Shown one piece after another: positions 11,214 through 61,790 of a stretch of 64,000 nucleotides of DNA. Under the pieces are notes generated by a model. That model made no database searches. It was not told the DNA's origin and saw nothing but the letters and a program-made list of their open reading frames with translations. Both the position numbers and the translations under genes were made by a program. The first letter of the stretch is position 1. Each line of letters opens with the position of its first letter. The stretch is taken from NCBI RefSeq assembly GCF_003918875.1, contig NW_025766975.1, positions 930,684 to 994,683 of the forward strand. Reading direction: 5' to 3'. This DNA is from Haliotis rubra (taxonomy: Eukaryota).

Positions 11214-12028
11214 GTTGGTGACGCTCCAACCTTCTTAGTTACATCGCCTCTGAGTTGCCTCCCTTTGCTCTAACCAGAGTGGCCTCCCTTGGCTTCCTGA
11301 AATACTTGACTGTCTTTCTGAGTTGATAGACGTAGCGATGGATGTGTTGGAGCATTTTGAGAATATTTCATTACAATGCGTGCATGTGCCTTCTTACAAA
11401 TCATAAAAATATGTAAAAATGCAATCTGTAAATGACAGCTGTTTAGATGCATGGACAGTAATGGCTAGAATCTCCTGGGATAATGACTCAGTAAAGGTTC
11501 ATGCATGTTATGTACACATTTTATTGATAATAATGAACAACAGTATTTGCAAAGTGGATGTAGTCGACCTTTGTAGCTTCTGTGCTTCTTTGTAAAGCAT
11601 GTACTATTGTCATTTACACTTGTTTCTGTTATATATGGGGTACGAGTGGCCCGAACATCTAAAAGTGCCACAGTTTCTGTGCAGAGATGCCAGAAACCTG
11701 TGATCGTGGTTCGAATCCCGATTCGCTCCGATTGTGTTTCTAAGTTTGGTAGCACCATACCCATGCTCTTTGGTATCACCAAAGTGGTAAAACGTCTGAG
11801 ACAGATAAAGCTGACAAGCCGTGATGGAACTGGAATACTGTTCAAAACGACGTTAAACCCAACTCACCCAGTGGCATATCCATTGCATGTTCAGAAATGA
11901 ACTAAAGGCAACATAAAATTTCCGTTTTCATAATGCCACCTTTACTTATTTCAAGTTTGCTTAAATCTGATTAGAAGCTGATTGATGCTCTTTGGTCCTC
12001 TTCATTTTCAAAGAACTGTTTCTTCCAG

Positions 12029-16728: not shown

Positions 16729-16846
16729 CAATGGGGTAGTCTGTTTGCTTCGTGGTTAAAGTGTTTGCTCGATTCTTCACTGCCTTTATATTCCTGGAAT
16801 ATAGCTAAAAGCGGCATAAAAGTACACTCACTCACTTTGTAGAAAA
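16729..16846 (+). mobile_element. Degenerate SINE family A copy
   Basis: ggggtagtctgtttgcttcgtggttaaagtgtttgctcg...gctaaaagcggcataaaagtacactcactcac. Confidence 0.35.
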
Positions 16847-17106: not shown

Positions 17107-18660
17107 ATGCATACAACAGTAAAGTAGCATACAATTACATACAGTTATACTAATGGCCATCGGTTGTCTACAGCGTTCACCATGTAACTGCTCGAGTCTA
17201 TACTACACACGTAGCGTGAATACAACAACCAGTAGAACTGCAATGATTGCCTGTATACAATGATACCACCACCGGTTGTACACCATATGAGAATTCTGGC
17301 TAATCCTTTAACGGCTTGTACGAACACAACCCACTGGACAGTACAACACCAAACATGACCCGCGTTTACAATGGTCAGGGGTTTACAATGATACCACCAC
17401 CGGTTGTACAGTATATGAGAATTCTGGCTGATCCTTTAACGGCTTGAACGAACACAACCCACTGGGCAGTACAACGCCAAAAATAACCCGCGTTTACAAT
17501 GGTCAGGGGTATACAATAATATCATCACTGGTTGTACAGTATAAAGAAATTCTGCCTATTCCTATAACGGCTGGTGCATATACAACCCACTGGACAGTAC
17601 AACGTGAAACATGACCCGCGTTTACTATGGCCAGGGGTATACAATAATACCACCAATGGTTGTACAGTATATGGGAATTCTGCCTACTCTTATAACGGCT
17701 TGTACGAACACAACCCACTGGACAGTACAACGTGAAACATGACCCGCGTTTACAATGGCCAGGGGTATACAATAATATCACTTCTGGTTGTACAGTATAA
17801 AGAAATTCTGCCTACTCCTATAACGGCTTGTGCATATACAACCTACTGGACAGTACAACGTGAAACATGACCCGCGTTTACAATGGCCAGGGGTATACAA
17901 TAATATCACTTCTGGTTGTACAGTATAAAGAAATTCTGCCTACTCCTATAACGGCTTGTGCATATACAACCTACTGGACAGTACAACGTGAAACATGACC
18001 CGCGTTTACAATGGCCAGGGGTATACAATAATATCACCACTGGTTGTACAGTATAAAGAAATTCTGCCTACTCCTATAACGGCTTGTGCATATACAACCC
18101 ACTGGACAGTACAACGTGAAACATGACCCGCGTTTACAATGGTCATTTGTATACAATAATATCACCACTGGGTGTACAGTATAAAGGAATTCTGCCTACT
18201 CCTATAACGGCTTGCACGAACACAACCCACTCGACAGTATAACGTCTAACATGACCCGCGTTTACAATGCTCAGGTGTATACAATAATACCACAACAGGT
18301 TGTTCAGTATATGGGAATTCTGCCTACTCCTATAAAGGCTCGTGCATATACAACCCACTCGACAGTACAACGTCTAAAATGACCTGCGTTTACAATGATC
18401 TGGTGTATATAATGCATACAATAGTAAAGTAGCATACAATTACATACAGTAATGCTAATCGCCATCGGTTGTCTACAGCGTTCCATGTAACTTCTCGAGT
18501 CTATACTACACACGTGGTGTGAATACAACAACCAGTAGAACTGCAATGATTGCCTGTATACAATAATACTACCTCCGGTTGTACAGTATATGAGACTTCT
18601 GGCAGATCCTTTAACGGCTTGTACGAACACAATGGTCAGGTGTATATAATAAAACTACCA
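17107..18660. repeat. Satellite with ~126-bp monomer (~9-10 copies, 17230-18400) embedded in a ~1.3-kb higher-order duplication (17107-17340 repeated at 18411-18640)
   Basis: Monomer gtatacaataataccaccactggttgtacagtataaagaaattctgcctactcctataacggcttgtgcatatacaacccactggacagtacaacgtgaaacatgacccgcgtttacaatggccagggg recurs with 85-100% identity. The flank atgcatacaacagtaaagtagcatacaattacatacag is present at both ends. Confidence 0.85.
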
Positions 18661-19592: not shown

Positions 19593-19984
19593 TGAAATAC
19601 GTGATTCAATGAAATATAATATTTATAATACACGCATACTCACCTTCGTCAGACACTGAAGTACTTATCAATTACCCGTCTAAGTTAACTAATTTGTCTT
19701 CATACTGTCTTCTAACAAGGTACTGAATACCCGCCTTAATTAAACCAGAACATGCAAATATTCGTCTCCATGACACACTGAACAGAATAAATATCACATT
19801 GAAACAATGCCATGATCAAACAGCCTGTAATTAGACTGAAATATTAATTAGATCCACCATATCTCAATATATATCAAATACTCGATCTGTGCATACGCCA
19901 TGAACACTGACATGAATACAACATGCTGACATGGTAATAAGTAAAATTAAAGGGCACAAGACGAATGAAGTCAAGACTGTTGTA

Positions 19985-20712
19985 ACTGCAGGGACATCCC
20001 TATATTACATCATTCAAACTGTTGTAACTGCAGGGACATGCCTATATTACATCATTCAAACTGTTGTAACTGCAGGGACATGCCTATATTACATCATTCA
20101 AACTGTTGTAACTGCAGGGACATGCCATCATTCAAACTGTTTAACATGCCTATGTAACTGCAGGGACATGCCTATATTACATCATTCAAACTGTTGTAAC
20201 TGCAGGGACATGCCTATATTACATCATTCAAACTGTTGTAACTGCAGGGACATGCCTATATTACATCATTCAAACTGTTGTAACTGCAGGGACATGCCTA
20301 TATTATATTACATTCATTCAAACTACAAACTGTTGTAACTGCAGGGACATGCCTATATTACATCATTCAAACTGTTGTAACTGCAGGGACATGCCTATAT
20401 TACATCATTCAAACTGTTGTAACTGCAGGGGCCTATATTACATCATTCAAACTGTTGTAACTGCAGGGACATGCCTATATTACATCATTCAAACTGTTGT
20501 AACTGCTGGGACATGCCTATATTACATCATTCAAACTGTTGTAACTGCAGGGACATGCCTATATTACATCATTCAAACTGTTGTAACTGCAGGGACATGC
20601 CTATATTACATCATTCAAACTGTTGTAACTGCAGGGACATGCCTATATTACATCATTCAAACTGTTGTAACTGCAGGGACATGCCTATATTACATCATTC
20701 AAACTGTTGTCT
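19985..20712. repeat. Minisatellite, 42-bp unit actgttgtaactgcagggacatgcctatattacatcattcaa x ~17 (contains a PstI site per unit)
   Basis: Near-perfect tandem copies. The unit length is divisible by 3, which explains the repetitive ORFs 19931-20768. Confidence 0.9.
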
Positions 20713-21352: not shown

Positions 21353-22288
21353 CAAGAAAAGGTGAGCGTATATAAAGGTTAGAGGTGTAGAATGCGTAAC
21401 ATAAGATGTTACAATGATAAAACGTTACATTATTGTGTATGCATTAAGAACTAAATTTAACATCTTGCTGTGCCGATGTTTGAAAATTGGTTCAGCATTT
21501 ACTTCATATGTCGTATCAGGTTCCAAATGATTTTTAAACTGATGAGCTAACAAATGGTCACTATACACCGAAAATATATCCTTATTTGAGGCAACAAAGT
21601 ACATTCGAGAATACCAGGGTGATTATATTCACGCCCTAAGAGTTACAAAACACCAAGGCCTTAAAAGATTCCTACTCTTATCATTATTTCAGCCTACGAA
21701 GAAACAACATTTCTGTGCAGCTTGAATATGTATCATGCCAGATATATCTATGTTTTATTAGCTGCTGATGCCAGTAAAAACCTTGTCGAGAAAAAGTATC
21801 AATACTGTTATATAACTGAAGTGTTTGCTGTATGAAGGACTGGGAAACAGTACGGACAGAACACAGAGAAAGTCGGTTTAGGAACAACATGGCTATCTTA
21901 CGATCTGTGATGTTTTATCGTCTTACGGGTTTTCCATCCTTCCTAAATGGATGAGTAGGATCACGTGACTCAAGTAGCACATTAATGTGAGCTGTTGTAA
22001 GGATATCAGTATATCTGATCTAGATGATAAATGAAGGTTGAATTACGGGCAGAATAACAGATGACGTCCGTTAAAGGCTTCCGTCGTATCAGCAACAGTA
22101 CATAAGTGTAGCAAGTTTAACTCAAGTCGTTAAATGTAACATACGTTGTCCTTTTGGATTACACTTTCTTATTAAAGTACAGGTTCTAGTAATTTGTGGG
22201 GTTGATGAACATTTAGGATTCGAATCGATACTCTCAGAGTGGGGGGACCTAATCGCCAGCACACAACACAAAATAACATGTTTATAGC

Positions 22289-22440
22289 GGGTGGGGGCGG
22301 TGGGGTGGGGTAGCCTAGTGGTTAAAGTTCGCTCGTCACGCCGAAGACCCGGGTTCGATTCCCCACATGGGTACAAGGTGTGAAGCCCATTTCTGGTGTC
22401 CCCCGCTGCGATTTTGCTGGAATATTGTTAAAAGCGGCGC
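22289..22440 (+). mobile_element. SINE family A copy forming the left half of an A+B composite
   Basis: ggtggggtggggtagcctagtggttaaagttcgctcgtcacgccgaagacccgggttcgattcccc...gctggaatattgttaaaagcggcg, joined directly to family B sequence at ~22441. Confidence 0.7.
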
Positions 22441-22625
22441 ACTCAGCTATATGGCGGCGGTCTGTAAATAATCGAGTCTGGACCAGACAATCCAGTGGTC
22501 AACAGCATGAGCATCGATCTACGCAACTGGGATACGATGACATGTAACAACCAAGTCAGCGAGCCTGACCACCCGATCCCGTTAGTCGCCTCATACGACA
22601 ACTCACTGTCTATCTTCACGGGTAC
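22441..22625 (-). mobile_element. SINE family B body (element sense = minus), right half of the A+B composite
   Basis: cactcagctatatggcggcggtctgtaaataatcgagtctggaccagacaatccagtggtcaacagcatgagcatcgatctacgcaactgggatacgatgacatg...cccgttagtcgcctcatacgacaac. Confidence 0.7.
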
Positions 22626-23311
22626 ATGTTTATAGACGTACATACATCTCCGAATGCACCACATACAACATACCTTTAAATGGTAATGTTGCATACAATA
22701 AACTGTAACTGCTATAGAATAGCATCATGGAAATATACACCAGGAACATACCTATTTATACTTACAAAAACGCAATCACTTCCGTGAGGATTCCGTATAA
22801 GAACATGCCCCAGTATTTGCTGATCAAACGAGGCGGGTCAGCTGGTCACATTCGATGACTTGGTTGATACCGTATCAACGCACCCCGATGGTGTTGATTG
22901 TTGCTCTTAATATCGATCACTGGATTGTCTGCTCCAGACTCGATTATTTACTTCTAGGATAATGTTGACTAAAATTAACTAAAAGCGACAAACCCCTTTC
23001 CACATCCATAAGAAATCTCTGCTAAAAGCAGAATCGATTGTACAATTGTGACTATATCATGTTTCTATTGAGTATGTATTTGTTTCAGCAGTATTACAGC
23101 TGTACGATGTTGTTTGTAATTATTTCGAGTCTGGACCGGACAATCCAGTGATTGTCACTGCGATACGATGACAGAGAATGTTATTACAGAATACCAGGTG
23201 TTCGCGAAAAGGTGGGCATATCCTGCCACATCGGTGGCACTTGTCATAAACATATGCAAAGTCTATTCAAATATTCACCCAAACTTCTTGAAAGCTTAAC
23301 TAAGTATGAAA

Positions 23312-28925: not shown

Positions 28926-29141
28926 TTAATGACGGAGGTACCTATCTTCAACTGGCGTTGTGATGCGTGGACGTCCACTTCTTGGTCTGTCTACGGTGAC
29001 TCCAGTCTGTCTGAAGCCCTGACTAAGTTTTATAACCGTGATACGGTGGCATCCGAGGGCGTTGGCAACAGCATTGTATGTCGACCCCATCTGCACCACC
29101 CCAATGGGTCTTTCTCTGACTTCAGCTGTTAATCGTGGCAT
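28926..29141 (-). pseudogene. Tc1/mariner-family transposase N-terminal (HTH) fragment: MPRLTAEVRERPIGVVQMGSTYNAVANALGCHRITVIKLSQGFRQTGVTVDRPRSGRPRITTPVEDRYLRH then stop
   Basis: Matches the characteristic Tc1-like N-terminal pattern MPRLS.E.R...G......A.....ST..RL...F..TG...DRPRSGRPR.TT...DRY. The ORF ends right after DRYLRH and abuts the (GT)n/(G)n tract at 28843-28886. No DDE catalytic domain follows. Confidence 0.55.
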
Positions 29142-29820
29142 ATTTCTCGTACTTGTGTATATCATCTTTTCTAGGCTCTCTTCATACCCTATAGAATCAT
29201 TCTTCATGTGAAATGGATGCAAATACTGCTTGAATGTTGCTGCGTTTTGGCGATTGATATTGCTATGTGTAAACGGAAAATGGAAAAATGTTACTTTGCA
29301 AGCAACAATGTTAACAAAGACCATTGTAGAAGTTCCTAAACATGTTTTTCACAATATCAAAGACACGTTTTACTTGTTTTCACTAATGCAAATCAGCAGA
29401 AAATGTTTTAAAAGGCTGAAATCATAGGAATGATTATTTTACAATTTTACACACTCTACAACAGTTGTTTCTTGTTTTAATAGTTGAAAAATGGTTATTT
29501 TAAATGGTTTATGTTTGTCCCAAAGCGGAATTTTAGTTCAACCTTTCTTTTGGACATCTAAATTGCTGTTATTGGTTTATTTCGGAATGGACGAAAATAG
29601 GACAATTTAATTCTTCTGAAAAAGATGCATTTCACCTAAATATGAATGCATTTGAGAATTTATTTTCGTGATTTGCATAAAGCTGTGTTGTTAAGCTTTA
29701 TTGTAAACTAATACCTTCTACCATATCTGTAATAGTTTTTAAGTAATTTATAAAGGTAGGGGGGTAACGTTTCTTTTGGCGTCTAGTGTATATAAATGCT
29801 TAATTTTGTTCATTATAAAG

Positions 29821-30070
29821 TGACCCGTGAAGGTCCGGGTTAGAATATTGATCTTCAGTAACCCACGCTTGTCGTAAGAGACGACTAATAAGATCAGGTG
29901 GTCAGGCTCGCTGACTTGGTTGACACATGTCATCGGTTCCCAATTGCGCAGATCGATGCTCATGCTGTTGATCACTGGGTTGTCTGGTCCAGACTCGATT
30001 ATTTACAGACCTCCGCCATATAGCTGGAATATTGCTGAGTGCGGCGTAAAACTAAACTCACTCACTCACT
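29821..30070 (+). mobile_element. SINE family B, full length with (CTCA)n tail; TSD cattat(a/g)aag (29811-29820 and 30071-30080)
   Basis: Head tgacccgtgaaggtccgggttagaat. Body ...gcgactaataagatcaggtggtcaggctcgctgacttggttgacacatgtcatcgg...gatcactgggttgtctggtccagactcgattatttacagacc. Tail gctggaatattgctgagtgcggcgtaaaactaaactcactcactcactc. Confidence 0.8.
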
Positions 30071-30096
30071 CATTATGAAGTGTTTTAACATGCGAG

Positions 30097-30246
30097 GGCG
30101 GTGGGTTAGCCTTGTGGTAAAAGCGTTCTCTCGTCACGCCGAAGGCCAGGGTTCGTTGTTTGAAGCCCATTTTTGGTGTCCCCCGCCGTGATATTGCTGG
30201 AATATTGCTAAAAGCGGCGTAAAACCCAAAATCACTCACTCACTCT
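30097..30246 (+). mobile_element. SINE family A copy (internal deletion); TSD ttaacatgcg (30085-30094 and 30246-30255 approx)
   Basis: ggcggtgggttagccttgtggtaaaagcgttctctcgtcacgccgaaggccagggttcg...gctaaaagcggcgtaaaacccaaaatcactcactcactc. Confidence 0.7.
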
Positions 30247-30400
30247 TAACATGCGTCTGGATCCAAAATACGCTATTCGATCGAAAAACATCGACAAGGA
30301 CTGATCCACATCTGGACAATAATCCGTATCAAATATTGACACGTATGTAACCTCTCTTAGTCGGAATGACCGAATTGTAACAACAGACTCGTTTGTTAGA

Positions 30401-36074: not shown

Positions 36075-36306
36075 GTTTTACGCCACACTCAGCAATATTC
36101 CAGCTACATGACGGCGGTCTGTAAATAATCGAGTCTGGACCAGACAATCCAGTGACCAACAACATGAGCATCGATCTAAGCAACTGAGATACGATGACAT
36201 GTGTCAACCAAGTCAGCGAGCCTGACTACCCGATCCCGTTAGTCGCCTTTTACGACAAGCATTTGGTTACTAAAGATCAATATTCTAACCCGGACCATCA
36301 CGGGTA
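36075..36306 (-). mobile_element. SINE family B copy (antisense), first of a tandem pair
   Basis: gttttacgccacactcagcaatattccagctacatgacggcggtctgtaaataatcgagtctggaccagacaatccagtgaccaac...ccggaccatcacgggtac. Confidence 0.75.
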
Positions 36307-36335
36307 CATTACAGGGTAAGAAAGACTGAGTATAT

Positions 36336-36576
36336 GAGTGAGTTTAGTTTCACGCCACACTCAGCAATATTCCAGCTATATGGCGGCGGTCTGTAAATAA
36401 TCGAGTTTGGTTCAGACAATCCAGTGACCAACAGCATGAACATAAACCTATTCAATTGGGAACCGATGACATGTGTCAACCACGTCAGCGAGCCTGACCA
36501 CCCGATCCCGTTAGTCGCCTCTCACGACAAGCATGGGTTACTGAAGATCAATTCTAACCCGGATCTTCACGGGTCG
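36336..36576 (-). mobile_element. SINE family B copy (antisense), second of the tandem pair, with GAGTGAGT head (= revcomp of CTCA tail)
   Basis: gagtgagtttagtttcacgccacactcagcaatattccagctatatggcggcggtctgtaaataatcgagtttgg...cccggatcttcacgggtcg. Confidence 0.75.
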
Positions 36577-36760: not shown

Positions 36761-37319
36761 CAGATTTATACAAGCAACCGCACACTAACGTGCATGAACG
36801 TCGTTTTATCATCTTGACCGCCACGTTAAACCTCCTTTTATCTCGCCTTACCTCGCCCTACCAAAAAGTTGGATATACTAAATAGTGTGATACCTCGATC
36901 ATTTTGCGGCCGATGACACTTTAACACATATATATTTCATTGAAAACATATCACGGGATTAATTAATCCAGAAGTGCGTTTCTCTGGACAGTTTCACTGG
37001 GAATGGACCCGATTAATTTCTTTGTGTATGCTACTTAAAGAATAACAAGCTACGGGGCAATATAGATTGTCTGACCAAAGCGATTGAATGGGAAAGTCCC
37101 GACATTTTGCAGAGGTACCCAAAACACTGATGCCCCATCATAATTAGAAGATAAAGCTACTCTGTTTTCAATTTTGCGGTCCTTTATCGTTGATTTAAGA
37201 CCGCTAAATGTAATTGAAAAACCGAACGCGTTAGCGTGAGCTCTCAGCCAATCAGAATCGAGTATCGCACCATGTGCTAGAATTCGTAATTCTGTGTTGA
37301 GGCAGCCCCTTGTTGACGC

Positions 37320-37450
37320 ATTCTTCTGTGTCTCCGAAGGCCGATTTGATTCCCCCCAAATGGGTGAAACGCTTATGTGGTGTCTGCAGCATTGCTGTAA
37401 TATTTATAAAAGCGGCGTAAAACCACACTCACTCTCTCACATACTCACAC
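37320..37450 (+). mobile_element. Diverged/truncated SINE family A copy
   Basis: ccgatttgattccccccaaatgggtgaaacgcttatgtggtgtctgcagcattgctgtaatatttataaaagcggcgtaaaaccacactcactctctcac. Confidence 0.45.
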
Positions 37451-37484
37451 AGTTATTCTGATTTTGTTTGTTTGATGTTTAACA

Positions 37485-37660
37485 GCGCATTCCAGCTATA
37501 TGGTGGCAGTCTATAAATAATTGAGTCTGGATCAGACAACCCAGTGATGAACATCATGAGCATCGATCTACACAACCGGGATACGAATACATGTGTCAAC
37601 CGAGTCAACGAAGGCTGACCACCTGGTCACGTTGGTCGGCTCTTACGACAAGCATTCGTT
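37485..37660 (-). mobile_element. Truncated family B copy (antisense), left arm of a head-to-head pair
   Basis: cattccagctatatggtggcagtctataaataattgagtctggatcagacaacccagtgatgaac...ggctcttacgacaagcat, truncated at the conserved catgcttgtcg position. Confidence 0.55.
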
Positions 37661-37812
37661 GGTCGTAAGAGGAGACTAACAGGATCGGGTAGTATGGCTT
37701 CCTCACCTGGTCGTATTCCAATTACGTTGATCATGCTCATGATGTCAGTCACCGGATTGTCTGGTCCAAATTATATTGTTTTTACAGACCGCTGTTATAT
37801 AGCTGGAATTGT
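37661..37812 (+). mobile_element. Truncated family B copy (sense), right arm of the head-to-head pair
   Basis: tcgttggtcgtaagaggagactaacaggatcgggtagtatgg...caccggattgtctggtccaaattatattgtttttacagaccgctgttatatagctggaatt. Confidence 0.55.
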
Positions 37813-38034: not shown

Positions 38035-39700
38035 TGTATCATCTCTCCTATTGTTATGCATCTCCAACCTTGTGTTATCTCTCCAGTCCAACCCTGTCAT
38101 TGTTTGCCTGATTGTTATGTATATCTCTCCTTATTGTTATCTCCTATTGTTATGTATTATCTCTGCCTGTATTATCTCTCCTATTGTTATGTATTATCTC
38201 TCCTATTGTTATGTATTATCTCTCCTCCTATTGTTATGTATTATCTCTCCTATTGTTATGTATCATCTCTCCTATTGTTATGTATCATATCTCTCCTATT
38301 GTTATTGTATGTATCATCTCCCTATTGTTATGTATTATCTCTCCTATTGTTATGTATCATCTCCTATTGTTATGTATCATCTCTCCTATTGTTATGTATC
38401 ATCTCTCTCTCCTATTGTTATGTATCTCCTATTGTTATTGTTATCTCTCCTATTGTTATGTATCATCTCTCCTATTGTTATGTATCATCTCTCCTATTGT
38501 TATGTATCATCTCTCCTATTGTTTGTATCATCTATCTCTCCTATTGTTATGTATTATTATCTCCTATTGTTATGTATCATCTCTCCCTGTATTGTTATGT
38601 ATCATCTCCTATTGTTATGTATCATCTCTCCTATTATGTATCATCTTATGTATGTATCTCTCCTATTGTTATGTATCATCTCTCCTATTGTTATGTATCA
38701 TCTCTCCTATTGTTATGTATCATCTCTCCTATTGTTATGTATCATCTCTCCTATTGTTATGTATTATCTCTCCTATTGTTATGTATCATCTCTCCTATTG
38801 TTATGTATTATCTCTCCTATTGTTATGTATTATCTCTCCTATTGTTATGTATCATCTCTCCTATTGTTATGTTATCTCTTATTATCATCTCTCCTATTGT
38901 TATGTATCATCTCTCCTATTGTTATTGTTATGTATCTCTCCTATTGTTATGTATCATCTCTCCTATTGTTATGTATTATCTCTATTGTTTGTTATGTATC
39001 ATCTCTATTGTTATGTATCATCTCTCCCTATTATTGTTATGTATGTATCTCTCCTATTATTATGTATCATCTCTCCTATTGTATCATCTCTCCTATTGTT
39101 ATGTATTGTCTCTCCTATTGTTATGTATTATCTCTCCTATTGTTATGTATCATCTCTCCTATTGTTATGTATATTCTTATTGTTATCTCCTCCTATTGTT
39201 ATGTATCATCTCTCCTATTGTTATGTATCATCTCCTATTGTTATGTATCATCTCTCCCTATTGTTATGTATCATCTCTCCTATTGTTATGTATCATCTCC
39301 TATTGTTATGTATCATCTCTCCTATTGTTATGTATCATCTCTCCTATTGTTATGTATCATCTCTCCTATTGTTATGTATTATCTCTCCTAGTTTCTTATG
39401 TATTATCTCCCCTAGTGTTATGTATTCTTTCCCTAGTATTGTGTTTCCCCTCCCCCTTAATGTTGTGTATTTTATGTATTATTTCCCTAATGTTGTGCGT
39501 TCTTCCCTTAGTGTTATGTATTCTTCCCTTAGTGTTATGTATTCTCCCCTTATGGTATGCATTCTAAGCATTTTTCACATACCGTTATGCATTCTTCCCA
39601 TAGTGTATGTATTCTGAGTATTTCCCTCTAGTGTTATGTATGTTCCCCCTAGTGTTGTGTACTCTTTCCCTAGTGTTGTGTATTCTTCCCCTAGTGCTAG
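38035..39700. repeat. Giant minisatellite array 1: 22-bp unit cctattgttatgtatcatctct x ~65, decaying into a cccctagtgttatgtattctt variant at the 3' end
   Basis: Tandem copies read directly. The unit has no stop codon in any forward frame, producing the 450-510 aa artefact ORFs 38018-39617. Confidence 0.95.
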
Positions 39701-40297: not shown

Positions 40298-40671
40298 CAA
40301 ATGAAAGAAACAACCTTGAGTGGTCACTTGCTCTCCAAAGACATAACAGGGTACATTTGCGTCTGCTCCAAATCAGTAACAACAACAGTGGGAATCGGCA
40401 CTGAACCAAGATCATCATATCTATCAGAAACAGCTCTAAGCATTTCTTCACACAAATATGCCTGATAATCAAAACATGCTAATCAGCTTATCTCACTGGC
40501 CTCTGTCACGAAGACATGATAATTTACTTATCTCACTGGGTTCTTGGTGAAAAAGGGTAGCAATAACATATTAAAATGGGATTTTGTCTTATGTTGGCCA
40601 TTTTGGTGTGGGATTTTGTCCAGAGAAATTTTGTTCAATGGGATTTTGTCTGGGTGGGATTTTGTCTGTCC

Positions 40672-43600
40672 CCCCAGTGCTATATATCCTTCCCCTAGTG
40701 TTATGTATTTTCCCCTTGTGTTATGCACTCTTCCTCTATTGCTATATATTCTTCCCCTAGTATTATGTATTTTCTCCCTTATGTTATATATGCTTCCCCA
40801 GTGCTATATATTTTCCCCCTAGTGTTGTTTATTTACTCTGTTGTGTTATGTTCTCTTCCCCTAGTGCTATATATTCTTCCCCTAGTGTTGTTTATTTACT
40901 CTGTTGTGTTATGTACTCTTCCCCTAGTGCTATATATTCTTCCCCTAGTGTTGTTCATTTACTCTGTTGTGTTATGTACTCTTCCCCTAGTGCTATATAT
41001 TCTTCCCCTAGTGTTGTTTATAGTTGTTTATTTACTCTGTTGTGTTATTTCTCTTCCCCTTTTGCTATATATTCTTCCCCTAGTGTTGTTCATTTACTCT
41101 GTTGTGTTATGTACTCTTCCCCTATTGCTATATATATATATTCTTCCCCTAGTGTTGTTTATTTACTCTGTTGTGTGATGTACTCTTCCCCTAGTGCTAT
41201 ATATTCTTCCCCTAGTGTTGTTCATTTACTCTGTTGTGTGATGTACTCTTCCCCTAGTGCTATATACTCTTCCCCCATTGCTATGTATTCTTCCCCTAGT
41301 GTTGTTTATTTACTCTGTTGTGTGATGTACTCTTCCCCTAGTGCTATATATATATTCTTCCCCTAGTGTTGTTCATTTACTCTGTTGTGTGATGTACTCT
41401 TCCCCTATTGCTATATACTCTTCCCCCATTGCTATGTATTCTTCCCCTAGTGTTGTTTATTTACTCTGTTGTGTGATGTACTCTTCCCCTAGTGCTATAT
41501 ACTCTTCCCCTAGTGTTGTATATTTACTCTGTTGTGTGATGTACTCTTCCCCTATTGCTATATACTCTTCCCCCATTGCTATGTATTCTTCCCCTAGTGT
41601 TGTTTATTTACTCTGTTGTGTGATGTACTCTTCCCCTATTGCTATATACTCTTCCCCCATTGCTATGTATTCTTCCCCTAGTGTTGTTTATTTACTCTGT
41701 TGTGTGATGTACTCTTCCCCTATTGCTATATACTCTTCCCTCATTGCTATGTATTCTTCCCCTAGTGTTGTATATTTACTCTGTTGTGTGATGTACTCTT
41801 CCCCTATTGCTATATACTCTTCCCCATTGCTATGTATTCTTCCCCTAGTGTTGTTTATTTACTCTGTTGTGTGATGTACTCTTCCCCTATTGCTATATAC
41901 TCTTCCCCATTGCTATGTATTCTTCCCCTAGTGTTGTATATTTACTCTGTTGTGTGATGTACTCTTCCCCTATTGCTATATATTCTTCCCCTAGTGTTGT
42001 ATATTAACTCTGTTGTGTGATGTACTCTTCCCCTAGTGCTATATACTCTTCCCCCATTGCTATGTATTCTTCCCCTAGTGTTGTTTATTTACTCTGTTGT
42101 GTTATGTACTCTTCCCCTATTGCTATATATTCTTCCCCTAGTGTTGTATATTTACTCTGTTGTGTGACTGTACTCTTCCCCTAGTACTATATATTCTTCC
42201 CCTAGTGTTGTTCATTTACTCTGTTGTGTGATGTACTCTTCCCCTAGTGCTATATATATATTCTTCCCCTAGTGTTGTTTATTTACTCTGTTGTGTGATG
42301 TACTCTGTTGTGTGATGTACTCTCTTCCCCTATTGCTATATACTCTTTCCCCATTGCTCTTCCCCTAGTGCTATATATTCTTCCCCTAGTGTTGTTTATT
42401 TATTTCTGTTGTGTGATGTACTCTTCCCCTATTGCTATATATTCTTCCCCTAGTGTTGTTTATTTACTCTGTTGTGTGATGTCTTCTCATTTCCCCTAGT
42501 GCCCCATATATATATTCTTCCCCTAGTGTTGTTTATTTACTCTGTTGTGTGATGTACTCTTCCCCTAGTGCTATATATTCTTCCCCTAGTGTTGTTTATT
42601 TACTCTGTTGTGTGATGTACTCTTCCCCCATTGCTATATATTCTTCCCCTAGTGTTGTTTATTTACTCTGTTGTGTGATGTACTCTTCCCCTATTGCTAT
42701 ATACTCTTTCCCCATTGCTATGTATTCTTCCCCTAGTGTTGTTTATTTACTCTGTTGTGTGATGTACTCTTCCCCTATTGCTATATATTCTTTCCCCCTA
42801 GTGTGATGTTATATATATTAACCCTAGTGTTGTGTGATGTACTCTTCCCCTAGTTGCTATGTACTCTTCCCCATTGCTATGTATTCTTCCCCTAGTGTTG
42901 TTTATTTACTCTGTTGTGTGACTGTACTCTTCCCCTAGTACTATATATTCTTCCCCTAGTGTTGTTTATTTACTCTGTTGTGTGATGTACTCTTCCCCTA
43001 GTGCTATATATATATTCTTCCCCTAGTGTTGTTCATTTACTCTGTTGTGTGATGTACTCTTCCCCTATTGCTATATACTCTTCCCCCATTGCTATGTATT
43101 CTTCCCCTAGTGTTGTTTATTTACTCTGTTGTGTGATGATGCTATTACTCTTCCCTAGTGCTATATATTCTTCTCCTAGTGTTGTTCATTTTCTTTCCCC
43201 TCTGTTGTGTGATGTACTCTTCCCCTATTGCTATATATTCTTCCCTAGTGTTGTATATTTACTCTGTTATTCTTTATGCCTTTCTGTTATGCATTTCTTT
43301 CCCTAGTGTATGCATTGTATCCTCAGTGTTGTGTATTCTTCCCCTGGTGATATGCGTTCTTAGATAAGGTGTGTTGTATTCATACTCTTTCCCCTAGAGC
43401 TATATATTCTTCCCCTAGTGCATTGTTATATATTCTTCCCTAGTGCTATATATTCTTCCCCTAGTGTGTTAGTGTCGTGTATTTTCTGCTTGTGTTATGT
43501 ACTCTTCCCCTAGTGCTATATATTCTTCGCCTTGTTTTATGTATTTTCTCCCTTGTGTTATGCATTTCTTTCTCTAGCGTTATGCATTGTACCCTCAGTG

Positions 43601-43975
43601 TTGTGTATTCTTCCCCTGGTGATATGCGTTCTTAGATAAGGTGTGTTGTATTCGTCCCCTAGAGCTATATATTCTTCCCCTAGTGCTATATATTCTTCCC
43701 CTAGTGCAATATATTCTTCCCCTAGTGTTGTGTATTTTCTGCTTGTGTTATGTACTCTTCCCCTAGTGCTATATATTCTTCGCCTTGTTTTATGTATTTT
43801 CTCCCTTGTGTTATGCATTTCTTTCTCTAGCGTTATGCATTGTACCCTAAGTGTTGTGTATTCTTCCCCTGGTGCTCTGCATTCGTAAATAAGGTGTGTT
43901 GTATTCTTCCCCTAGTGCTATATAGTCCTTCTGTTCTTCTGTAATGTATTCATTGCCAAGTGTTGTGTACTCTTA
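40672..43975. repeat. Giant minisatellite array 2: ~63-bp compound unit (tcttcccctagtgctatatat + tcttcccctagtgttgtttatttac + tctgttgtgtgatgtac) x ~45, with a ~260-bp higher-order variant duplicated at 43290-43820
   Basis: Direct reading. Shares the cccctagtg(c/t)tat motif with array 1, in the same orientation. Confidence 0.95.
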
Positions 43976-47799: not shown

Positions 47800-47970
47800 G
47801 GGAGCGGTGGGGTAGCTTAGTGGTTAAAGCGTTTGCTCTTCACGCTGAAGACCCGGGTTCGATTCCCCACATGACTGCAATGTGTGAAGCTCATTTCTGG
47901 TCTTCCCCGCCGTAATGTTTGCTGGAATATTGCTAAAAGCGGCGTAAAACCATACTCACTCACTCACTCT
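47800..47970 (+). mobile_element. SINE family A, full length, TSD aacacctaa (47791-47799 and 47971-47979)
   Basis: gggagcggtggggtagcttagtggttaaagcgtttgctcttcacgctgaagacccgggttcgattccccacatgactgcaatgtgtgaagctcatttctgg...gctaaaagcggcgtaaaaccatactcactcactcactc. Confidence 0.85.
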
Positions 47971-56365: not shown

Positions 56366-56506
56366 TAGGGGTGGTACGATAGCGATGTGGGTTAAGCGTT
56401 CACTCGTCATGCCGAAGACCCAAGTTCGATTCCCCACACGGGGACAATGTGTGAATCCCATTTTATTGGGTCAGCATGATCCTTGTTCACAGCACCAATC
56501 ACCAGG
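56366..56506 (+). mobile_element. Family A-like tRNA-derived head with a divergent 3' region, left half of a second A+B composite
   Basis: ggggtggtacgatagcgatgtgggttaagcgttcactcgtcatgccgaagacccaagttcgattccccacacggggacaatgtgtgaatcccatttt then divergent sequence. Confidence 0.5.
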
Positions 56507-56724
56507 TGAGTGAGTGAGTGGGTGAGTATAGTGAGCGGTCATTAAATAATCGAGTCTGGATCAGACAATCCAGTGATCAACAGCACGAGCATCGATCTAC
56601 GCATTTGGGGTATGATGACATGTGTCAACCAAGCCAGCGAGTCTGACCACCCGATCCCGTTAGTCACCTATTAGGAGAAGCATGGGTTGCTGAAGATCAA
56701 TTCTAACCCGGATCTTCATGGGTC
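56507..56724 (-). mobile_element. Family B copy (antisense), right half of the second A+B composite
   Basis: gtgagtgagtgagtgggtgagtatagtgagcggtcattaaataatcgagtctggatcagacaatccagtgatcaacagcacgagcatcgatctacgcatttgggg...cccgttagtcacc...catgggttgctgaagatcaattctaacccggatcttcatgggtc. Confidence 0.65.
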
Positions 56725-56931: not shown

Positions 56932-57064
56932 ATATACTCATGCCAATAATGGTTGTCACCCCCCCCCCCACCCCAACCCCACACATACCTCACACCCCCA
57001 CCCGACACCCCCTCTCCAATTAAAAAATTGAAGGGGGTGACAACCATTATTGGCATGAGTATAT
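56932..57064. mobile_element. TA-flanked hairpin (MITE-like) element: perfect ~32-bp terminal inverted repeats atatactcatgccaataatggttgtcaccccc around a ~70-bp C-rich loop
   Basis: Left arm 56932-56963 is the exact reverse complement of right arm 57033-57064. The loop is cccccaccccaaccccacacatacctcacacccccacccgacaccccctctccaattaaaaaattgaa. Outer boundaries fall in at/ta dinucleotides, consistent with TA target sites. Confidence 0.5.
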
Positions 57065-59934: not shown

Positions 59935-61790
59935 GTAGTATTATAAAAAGTAGTAGTGGCAGAGGAGTATGTGACCACTAGTAGTGGCAGTGGTAGCAGT
60001 AGTATGTGACCACTAGTAGTGGCAGGGGTAGCAGTAGTATGTGACCACTAGTAGTGGCAGAGTTAGCAGTAGTATGTGACCACTAGTAGTGGCAGAGGTA
60101 GCAGTAGTATGTGACCACTAGTAGTAGCAGAGTTAGCAGTGTATGTGACCACCAGTAGTGGCACTAGCAGTAGTGGCAGCAGTAGTATGTGAGCAGTAGG
60201 CAGAGGTAGCAGTAGTATGTGACCACCTAGTAGTGGCAGCAGGGTAGCAGTAGTATGTGACCACTAGTATTGGCAGAGTTAGCAGTAGTATGTGACCACC
60301 AGTAGTGGCAGTAGCAGTGGCATAGCAGTGACCACATTGGCAGAGTAGCAGTAGTATGTTAGCAGTGGCAGGGGTAGCAGTAGTATGTGACCACTAGTAG
60401 TGGCAGTATGTGGTAGCAGTAGTATGTGACCACTAGTAGTGGCAGCAGTATATGTGCAGTGGCAGAGGTATGTGACCACCAGTAGTGGCAGAGATAGCAG
60501 TAGTATGTGCTAGTAGTGGCAGTAGCAGTAGTATGTGACCACTAGTAGTGGCAGAGATAGCAGTAGTATGTAGACAGAGTAGCAGTAGTGACCACTAGTA
60601 GTGGCAGAGGTAGCAGTAGTATGTGACCACTAGTAGTGGCAGAGGTAGCAGTAGTATGTGACCACTAGTAGTGGCAGAGATAGCAGTAGTATGTGACCAC
60701 TAGTAGTGGCAGAGTTAGCAGTAGTATGTGACCACTAGTAGTGGCAGAGGTAGCAGTAGTATGTGACCACTAGTAGTGGCAGAGACCACTAGTAGCAGTA
60801 GTATGTGACCACTAGTAGAGGCAGAGATAGCAGTATATGTGACCACTAGTAGTGGCAGAGGTAGCAGTAGTATGTGACCACCAGTAGTGGCAGAGGTAGC
60901 AGTAGTATGTGACCACTAGTAGTGGCAGAGGTAGCAGTGGCAGAGATAGCAGTAGTATGTGACCACTAGTAGTGATAGCAGTAGTATGTGACCACTAGTA
61001 GTGGCAGAGAGATAGCAGTAGCATGTGACCACTAGTAGTGGCAGCAGTATGTGACCACTAGTAGTGGCAGAGATAGCAGTATGTGACCACTAGTGGCAGA
61101 GTGTAGTATGTGCAGAGATAGCAGTAGTATGTGACCACTAGTAGTGGCAGAGTTAGCAGTAGTATGTGACCACTAGTAGTGGCAGAGGTAGCAGTAGTAT
61201 GTGACCACTAGTAGTGGCAGAGGTAGCAGTAGCATGTGACCACTAGTAGTGGCAGAGTTAGCAGTAGTATGTGACCACTAGTAGTGGCAGAGGTAGCAGT
61301 AGCAGTAGTCATGTGACCACCTAGTAGTGGCAGAGGTAGCAGTAGTATGTGACCAGCAGTAGTGGCAGTGGCAGAGGTAGCAGTAGCATGTGACCACTAG
61401 TAGTGGCAGAGGTGGCAGATGTGACCACCTAGTAGTGGCAGAGGTAGTAGTATGTGTGTGACCAGTGGCAGAGGTAGCAGTAGTATGTGACCACTAGTAG
61501 TGGCAGAGGTAGTATGTGACCACTAGTAGTGGCAGAGGTAGCAGTAGTATGTGACCACTAGTAGTGGCAGAGGTAGCAGTAGTATGTGACCACTAGTAGT
61601 GGCAGAGGTAGCAGTAGTATGTGACCACTAGTAGTGGCAGAGGTAGCAGTAGTATGTGACCACTAGTAGTGGCAGAGGTAGCAGTAGTATGTGACCACTA
61701 GTAGTGGCAGAGGTAGCAGTAGTATGTGACCACTAGTAGTGGCAGAGGTAGCAGTAGTATGTGACCACTAGTAGTGGCAGACGTAAACGA
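59935..61790. repeat. Minisatellite, 35-bp unit gtagcagtagtatgtgaccactagtagtggcagag x ~53 (SpeI site per unit)
   Basis: Period 35 verified between 61566 and 61601. Many near-perfect copies. Confidence 0.95.

Follow-up and report, generated by a model that had tools for sequence, protein, structure and literature searches.

The sequence at 22288–22623 was a one-off, single-locus rearrangement of two ordinary retroposons and not a mobile composite. Alignment to the consensuses of two repeat families, A and B, and exact indexing of the window (the whole 64-kb stretch of DNA that was analysed) resolved it as a tRNA-derived family A SINE in sense orientation fused to an antisense family B retroposon, hereafter composite 1 (Table 1). 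A sense A copy running directly into antisense B had been predicted at 22289–22625 and proved real once the limits were corrected. The same architecture had been described as recurrent; the window instead held one rearranged SINE pair and two unrelated neighbours. The oddity of composite 1 lies in its outward 5′ ends, in both tails being cut at the same point of a potential stem-loop, and in its single perfect TSD. We tentatively favour an origin by two insertions into the same 12-bp target, with later deletion of the centre of the resulting quasi-palindrome.

Table 1. Features of composite 1 and of the two other A-sense/B-antisense pairs in the window.
Feature	Position	Strand	Remarks
Composite 1, left 12-bp TSD copy, ACATGTTTATAG	22276–22287		exact direct repeat abutting composite 1
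Composite 1, 7 extra bases (cgggtgg) at A 5′ junction	22288–22294	+	alignment to A consensus begins at 22295
Composite 1, family A, consensus 1–142	22295–22439	+	95% identity to A consensus
Composite 1, junction CG	22438–22439		common to A end (gcggCG) and antisense B start (CGcactcag); consensus alignment, exact indexing
Composite 1, family B body, consensus ~216 down to 48	22440–22601	-	97% identity over 158 bp
Composite 1, 10-nt filler (ctcactgtct)	22602–22611		replaces B consensus 14–47 (34-nt deletion); consensus alignment, exact indexing
Composite 1, B 5′ terminus, reverse complement of consensus 2–13 (atcttcacgggt)	22612–22623	-	abuts right TSD; 12/12 match to other B 5′ ends
Composite 1, right 12-bp TSD copy, ACATGTTTATAG	22624–22635		exact direct repeat abutting composite 1
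Composite 2, A fragment, consensus 1–95	56369–56463	+	83% identity; old copy
Composite 2, spacer of 42 unassignable bases	56464–56505		no other copy in the window
Composite 2, antisense B with own (gtga)n tail and full 5′ end	56506–56724	-	91% identity; 3′ module deleted
Third A-sense/B-antisense pair	37298–37660		both tails present

Parent families and anatomy of composite 1

The window had a G+C content of ~40%, was dense in short interspersed repeats and has the look of eukaryotic, probably invertebrate, DNA. Self-comparison recovered ~11 copies or fragments of A and ~18 of B, both of which are genuine multi-copy repeats. Family A, of ~150 bp plus an (ACTC)n tail, is a tRNA-derived SINE, being short, dispersed and multi-copy, with a simple-repeat 3′ tail and variable TSDs of 9–16 bp. 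The head of one copy (47806–47877) scored 33.8 bits on the Rfam tRNA model, for which the gathering score is 29, and the consensus carries TAGCCTAGTGG and GGTTCGATTCC, which read as A-box-like and B-box-like motifs. ARAGORN called no tRNA gene, and composite 1, its A head included, had no match in Rfam; both results are as expected of degenerate SINE heads. Family B, of ~231 bp plus its tail, has the properties of a retroposon, namely a defined 5′ end, a LINE-like 3′ tail, TSDs and many copies. All full-length B copies begin GACCCGTG, directly after TSDs of 10–14 bp. A full B copy had no Rfam match at E ≤ 1, and a B-box-like GGTTAGAAT was the only pol III-like signal in its head, which, by analogy with the LP-SINEs of PMC4758252, could derive from a LINE.

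Both families share a 3′ module, consisting of gctggaatattgct, then aaaa in A or gagt in B, then gcggcgtaaaac, and followed by (actc)n; some B copies end in a (caaa)n-type tail instead. Because of this module, the tails and the TSDs of 9–16 bp, A and B appear to be LINE-dependent retroposons with one common 3′ recognition module. Single-sequence folds of both families closed the module into a 6-bp stem, CGCCG(U/C)/GCGGCG, which was paired in 88.5% of cells over 16 copies from four families, compared with 21–56% in slid registers. Covariation in this stem was not above column shuffles for the same 16 copies, and RNAalifold picked a different 4-bp stem, also without covariation. The shared stem is best described as a conserved, predicted structure rather than a proven one. 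Two further SINE-like families (11640–11870 and 16730–16840), with tRNA-like or short heads, carry diverged versions of the module at their 3′ ends (ctggaatactgttcaaaacgacgttaaaccc; cctggaatatagctaaaagcggcataaaag and cactcactcact), and at least four families seem to share one LINE-type tail. Tails common to different heads and bodies have been described for "jigsaw" SINE families of molluscs. Stringent LINE/SINE pairs such as UnaL2/UnaSINE1 (cited in PMC4758252) share a 3′ stem-loop and terminal tandem repeats, and stem-loop recognition in such pairs is noted in PMC5135761. The likeness here lies in the related module and short tandem repeat that terminate A, B and at least two more of the window's SINE-like families; the difference is that the 64-kb window held no partner LINE and the stem no covariation, recognition by an RT being assumed. 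SINE strings gave no match in a full-text literature search.

Composite 1 reads, from left to right, ACATGTTTATAG, cgggtgg, A 1–142, antisense B ~216–48, the 10-nt filler, B 13–2 and ACATGTTTATAG. Both halves keep their true 5′ ends, facing outward, and lack everything 3′ of the stem. In the A half the 5′ end and the A- and B-box-like motifs are intact, and a 5-nt stutter (ggtgg) follows the extra bases at its head; in normal A copies GGGCGGTGGGGTAGCC starts directly after the TSD, with no extra bases. The A half ends ...gctggaatattgttaaaagcggcg (...aaaagcggcg), without TAAAAC and (ACTC)n, and the join reads gcggCGcactcag. Beyond it the antisense B begins cactcagctatatggcggcggtctgtaaataatcgag..., and 22440–22623 is 97% identical to the consensus. 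Consensus alignment thereby bore out the predicted absence of a tail at the internal join. The B half lacks gcg, TAAAAC and the tail, and shows an 11-bp deletion (caatattccag) between 22446 and 22447, just inside the join and flanked by CAG/GCTG repeats. The break points of the two halves thus differ by no more than 3 nt within the shared module. The 6-nt palindromic overlap, gcggcg/cgccgc, that had been proposed for the join was not found: only 2 nt (CG) are common, because gcggcg is not self-complementary and only cgcactcag of the antisense B is present. Another parse of the join, with a 12-bp deletion in A plus a 6-nt "cactca" tail and B truncated at agc, requires the same number of events and is equally parsimonious; it was judged less likely because the chosen parse has a 9-nt B match and its 11-bp slip, flanked by GCTG/CAG, is explained naturally, and the choice leaves the conclusions unaffected.

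The exact 12-mer abutting both ends, ACATGTTTATAG, has no further occurrence on either strand of the 64 kb, against an expectation of 0.01, and its length lies inside the 9–16 bp range of normal A and B copies in the window. Estimated from base composition, the chance of an exact 12-mer abutting both ends within a couple of bases is ~2e-6. The statement that A continues into B without a TSD is therefore right for the internal join and wrong for the composite as a whole. The + strand of composite 1 ends in a reverse-complement B head and the - strand in a reverse-complement A head, and exact indexing found no TAAAAC or repeat tail at either end. The halves are similarly diverged (5.1% and 3.2%), and the junction 24-mer had no second copy in the window with up to 3 mismatches. 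Folded as a present-day hairpin, the junction region was no more stable than shuffles (z = -0.06). Because neither end carries the module and a TTTT at 22412, in the A half, precedes the join, composite 1 is unlikely to be mobile as a unit. No function is apparent for it; promoter-like boxes survive in the A half, and the TTTT would act as a stop upstream of the join.

Downstream of composite 1 lie two old B-like fragments, at 22835–22951 (+) and 23085–23152 (-), with 78–80% identity. They and its B part make up inverted repeats whose 77-nt arms are 78% complementary; the fragments are outside the TSD and not part of composite 1.

Other A/B neighbours in the window

The supposed second copy (56369–56724, composite 2) is an unrelated neighbouring pair. 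Its A part ends at consensus ~95–103 and is separated by the 42-base spacer from a B that keeps its tail and lacks the module, so that the architecture of composite 1, reported as seen twice, is not repeated here. Similarity of the spacer to the 3′ part of A was no better than for shuffles (P = 0.32), and a reading as diverged A sequence was rejected. The halves differ in age, as judged by their identities to consensus (Table 1). The proposed check for TSDs around the whole composite, which returned the 12-bp pair at composite 1, gave no TSD of at least 8 bp around composite 2, whether around its B or around the whole A/B pair.

In the third pair, an A-like copy with its tail (37298–37451) is followed by its right TSD, GTTATTCTG (37452–37460), the left TSD copy being GTAATTCTG at 37286–37294. 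The antisense B (37461–37660) starts directly after this TSD with its own (caaa)n-type tail. Because both tails are present, the third pair is two separate insertions. Three-way alignment of the pairs starting at 22288, 37298 and 56369 gave three different junctions. Tail-to-tail A/B neighbours were nevertheless commoner than under random placement, with three observed and 0.35 expected (P = 0.005); given adjacency the excess had P = 0.05, in a small sample examined post hoc.

Neighbouring SINEs with abutting TSDs were also seen. On the - strand at 36075–36575, the tail of B copy 2 is followed by TCTTTCTTAC, then by CC(C)TGTAATGT and the head of B copy 1. At 29822–30260 a B tail is followed by TCATTATGAAGT, gtt, TTAACATGCG and an A head, and at 37286–37470 an A tail and GTTATTCTG are followed directly by the antisense B tail. 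TSDs abutting within 0–3 nt suggest re-use of nick positions near existing SINEs, and guidance of nicks to existing tails is only suggested by these three small examples, read by eye.

Two other inverted structures lie near these pairs. Two 5′-truncated B copies, at 37489–37660 (-) and 37662–37809 (+), are joined head-to-head at consensus ~39/~50. Their origin as snap-back self-copies was rejected, with one shared derived substitution vs 17 and 23 private ones. A perfect 32-bp terminal inverted repeat (ATATACTCATGCCAATAATGGTTGTCACCCCC) surrounds a 69-bp C-rich spacer at 56932–57064, 200 bp downstream of composite 2, and this element looks like a MITE or foldback element.

Origin of composite 1

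Composite 1 makes a useful test case, because its architecture is not what standard accounts of inverted or chimeric insertion by LINEs produce. Target-primed reverse transcription leaves the tail beside one TSD. A simple nested insertion was rejected, since the B head runs up to the right 12-mer with neither an A tail nor a B TSD in between. Twin priming, including its two-RNA version proposed for antisense 5S/tRNA-L1 chimeras, places the 5′ end of the inverted RNA at the internal junction (bioRxiv 10.1101/2025.02.02.635956). Products of twin priming and antisense small-RNA-LINE-1 chimeras resemble composite 1 in their two opposed segments, one LINE-type TSD and short microhomology (Ostertag & Kazazian 2001; bioRxiv 10.1101/2025.02.02.635956), but one of their segments keeps a 3′ tail next to the TSD, whereas composite 1 has its two 5′ ends on the outside and lacks both tails. 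U6/L1, Alu/L1 and Magnaporthe tripartite pseudogenes (PMC2104539) are likewise copies of different RNAs fused within one TSD, and such chimeric retrogenes are attributed to a LINE RT changing template. Template jumps give chimeras in the same orientation with a tail or poly(A) on the 3′ part (PMC2104539; bioRxiv 10.1101/2025.02.02.635956); composite 1 is inverted and tail-less. An RNA-to-RNA template jump would fit the single TSD but not the orientation or the absent tail.

In the explanation that we tentatively prefer, A would first have inserted in sense by target-primed reverse transcription, giving T-A-tail-T, where T is the 12-bp duplication. B would then have entered the right-hand T through the same pair of staggered nicks, but pointing the other way, to give T-A-tailA-T-tailB(rc)-B(rc)-T. 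This would have set the shared modules and tails against one another in a near-perfect inverted repeat around a 12-nt spacer, and the hairpin-prone centre (TAAAAC, tail, T, tail and GTTTTAC) would have been lost by slippage, or by repair of a break at the centre, between the CG dinucleotides that mark the foot of the perfect stem. Finally, an 11-bp slip between GCTG/CAG repeats would have removed one arm of a residual 12-bp inverted repeat. Observed directly are the layout of the parts, the one TSD pair, a junction at the base of the stem and the lack of recurrence; the order of events, the intermediate with three T copies and the mode of deletion are our inference.

Several observations are consistent with this two-insertion path. 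The complete, outward 5′ ends abut an exact repeat that is unique to the two sites and of TSD-range length, and both halves break at the same module position with a 2-nt microhomology. The break point coincides with the 3′ base of the potential stem CGCCG/CGGCG and with the place where inverted A and B modules begin to pair perfectly. The two ends of the deletion, separated by 3 nt in module coordinates, have CG in common and fall where the perfect stem begins in the reconstructed intermediate. As DNA this intermediate folds into a hairpin of -40.8 kcal/mol (z = -13), a value that illustrates the model and is not evidence for it, the sequence being a constructed one. Its perfect inner stem starts exactly at gcggcg, bounded by a 4-nt family-specific mismatch (aaaa/actc), and if the inner stem is excised from one CG dinucleotide to the other, the join of composite 1 results. 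Of the two arms of the inverted repeat left behind (gctggaatattg/caatattccagc), one is taken out by the 11-bp deletion. The over-representation of tail-to-tail A/B neighbours, the abutting TSDs of other SINEs, and the retention of both tails in the third pair, where the tail types differ and so are non-complementary, also agree with it. Closely spaced inverted Alu pairs and palindromes are prone to form hairpins and are stabilised by deletions at or around the symmetry centre (centre-break repair), with endpoints at short direct repeats. Composite 1 is similar in that its deletion endpoints lie at the base of a potential hairpin and at short direct repeats; it differs in its short arms (~40 bp), and for composite 1 the process is read from the endpoints only.

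Against the two-insertion path, no three-T intermediate was seen at the locus or at any other in the window, and exact re-use of both nicks would be a coincidence unless the endonuclease or ribonucleoprotein was guided to tails. The TSD sequences have no strong cleavage motif: all that recurred among the TSDs of the window was a loose ATG(T), towards the 5′ side in several of them. Conventionally, a single TSD pair around two retro-copied segments denotes one integration event, which the similar divergence of the halves would also fit, and the 10-nt filler in the B head is left unexplained.

Composite 1 may instead stem from one integration event in which the RT switched strands at the shared module, the leading alternative, which we rate as rather unlikely. 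The cDNA of one SINE would be complementary to the RNA of the other over the 3′ module and tail, and the polymerase, on meeting this heteroduplex, would turn at the gcggcg edge, past the 4-nt mismatch and with the help of the CG microhomology, and copy the other molecule to its 5′ end. In a variant, the two 3′ overhangs of a single staggered break would each capture a free cDNA, and microhomology would join the two. Both variants would make the two target junctions "5′-type" and incorporate no tail. Enclosure of both halves by one exact TSD pair, the 2-nt microhomology at the base of the shared potential stem-loop and the similar divergence all speak for such an event, in which the single TSD and the common break point need no coincidence. 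The extra and stuttered bases at the A 5′ junction are as at LINE-mediated 5′ junctions, and LINE RTs switch templates and make chimeric insertions inside one TSD (bioRxiv 10.1101/2025.02.02.635956; PMC2104539). However, no described pathway with outward 5′ ends was found in the literature, one half must be copied from cDNA and not from RNA, and neither RNA's tail is present, though presumably needed for priming by a stringent LINE partner. The window also held no second case among ~29 SINE copies or fragments. Composite 1 could, at the same low level of confidence, be a previously undescribed one-step outcome of LINE-mediated retrotransposition, in which a polymerase copying one SINE's cDNA makes a U-turn onto the RNA of a second, different SINE, annealed by way of the LINE-derived 3′ stem-loop and tail that they share, and so leaves an inverted, tail-less, heads-out chimera of two families within one TSD. 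If this were true and general, shared tails would offer SINE modules a way to be shuffled and inverted, as well as a signature of second-strand synthesis by the LINE RT. Template switching or recombination at the shared modules, as in the original prediction, survives in spirit for composite 1 only, through the common break point, and not as a recurrent event.

We consider it improbable that B was nested in A by an endonuclease-independent-like insertion, its RNA being reverse-transcribed from a break or nick at gcggcg^taaaac with the CG microhomology priming internally and the target deleted up to the right TSD of A. The 12-mer pair would then be the TSD of A, in keeping with the normal A 5′ junction in this account, the normal size of the TSD, and a B with neither a tail nor a TSD of its own. 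LINE-1 insertions described by Morrish et al. in 2002 are reportedly 3′-truncated and TSD-less, with target deletions, and count in its favour. The target deletion would, however, have to end within ~1 nt of the boundary between A tail and TSD, a coincidence of roughly 1 in 15 to 1 in 30, and the break would have to fall exactly at the module position where B is truncated; the 11-bp deletion is left unexplained. Still more improbable is an amplifying composite (dimeric) family of head-A/inverted-B units, with 22288–22623 and 56369–56724 as its copies. Sense A followed by antisense B three times in 64 kb, and a TSD on composite 1 like that of a mobilised unit, would suit it. Aligned to each other, however, the two composites have different junctions, which, within the window, tells against the distinct element family that had been suggested; no two of the three junctions agree base for base, the B tail is retained in composite 2 and in the third pair, and the halves of composite 2 differ in age and have no TSD. 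The junction 24-mer is unique in the window, the ends of composite 1 lack the module and tail found on every normal copy, and pol III would be stopped at the TTTT (22412), short of the join. Differing junctions had been named as a sign of coincidental adjacent insertions, together with a separate TSD for each half; the junctions do differ, but composite 1 is not a simple adjacent-insertion pair because its halves have no separate TSDs. An artefact of assembly or sequencing, with a chimeric join of two repeats, is scarcely credible. Repeats are often misassembled, and nothing specific points to it here; around a false join there would be no exact 12-bp duplication of unique flanks, and sense A and antisense B modules have no sequence overlap that an assembler could merge.

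Bivalve genomes offer the nearest parallels to the two-insertion path, in palindromic and single-TSD multi-SINE structures with truncated tails (PMC11481361). In bivalves, SINE units adjoin directly, in direct or inverted orientation and sometimes from different families, and "TSD1-(SINE)n-TSD1" arrays hold several units with truncated 3′ tails within a single TSD pair, the TSDs being 6–18 bp long and the tails microsatellite-like (Martelossi et al. 2024, Mob DNA 15:22, PMC11481361). Composite 1, with adjoining tail-truncated SINE units inside a single TSD pair, is similar. The single-TSD arrays dissected in that study were direct repeats of one family, and palindromic ones were counted, without analysis of their junctions (PMC11481361); unlike the dissected arrays, composite 1 joins two different families, inverted and with the 5′ ends outward. 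Composite 1 is an instance of known SINE clustering and rearrangement with an unusual heads-out, single-TSD architecture. Post-insertional hairpin deletion and RT strand switching, either of which shared LINE-derived tails may promote, both bear on the exchange of parts among modular ("jigsaw") SINE families. As a single instance, composite 1 is a lead rather than a result.

Database searches and other sequences in the window

A degenerate pattern of the junction had no match in metagenome contigs, a collection with almost no host DNA, which makes this absence weak evidence against a composite family. A generic B 31-mer, used as a control, matched one 1.2-kb metagenome contig (PEAW01034287.1), with no match in prokaryote genomes or in viral contigs. 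Over its length (1–1203) this contig holds a full antisense B with a (gtga)n tail, and an antisense A-head fragment at the contig end; it is host-like DNA inside a deposited metagenome or assembly.

The only protein-like ORF of the window, at 28926–29324 (-), matched the winged-HTH family HTH_29 weakly (E = 6e-4), short of the Pfam cut-off. Judged by eye, it is similar to the N-terminus of a Tc1/mariner-type transposase. The one relative in the databases, with 54% identity, was on a contig of GCA_002753775.1, from the same project as PEAW01034287.1. Large satellite and minisatellite arrays were located at 38168–39425, 40671–43924, 59966–61785, 17253–18413 and 19971–20710, with periods of 22, 21, 35/70/105, 128 and 42 bp. 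All the long "ORFs" of the window, and its strong skews in strand composition, are due to these arrays.
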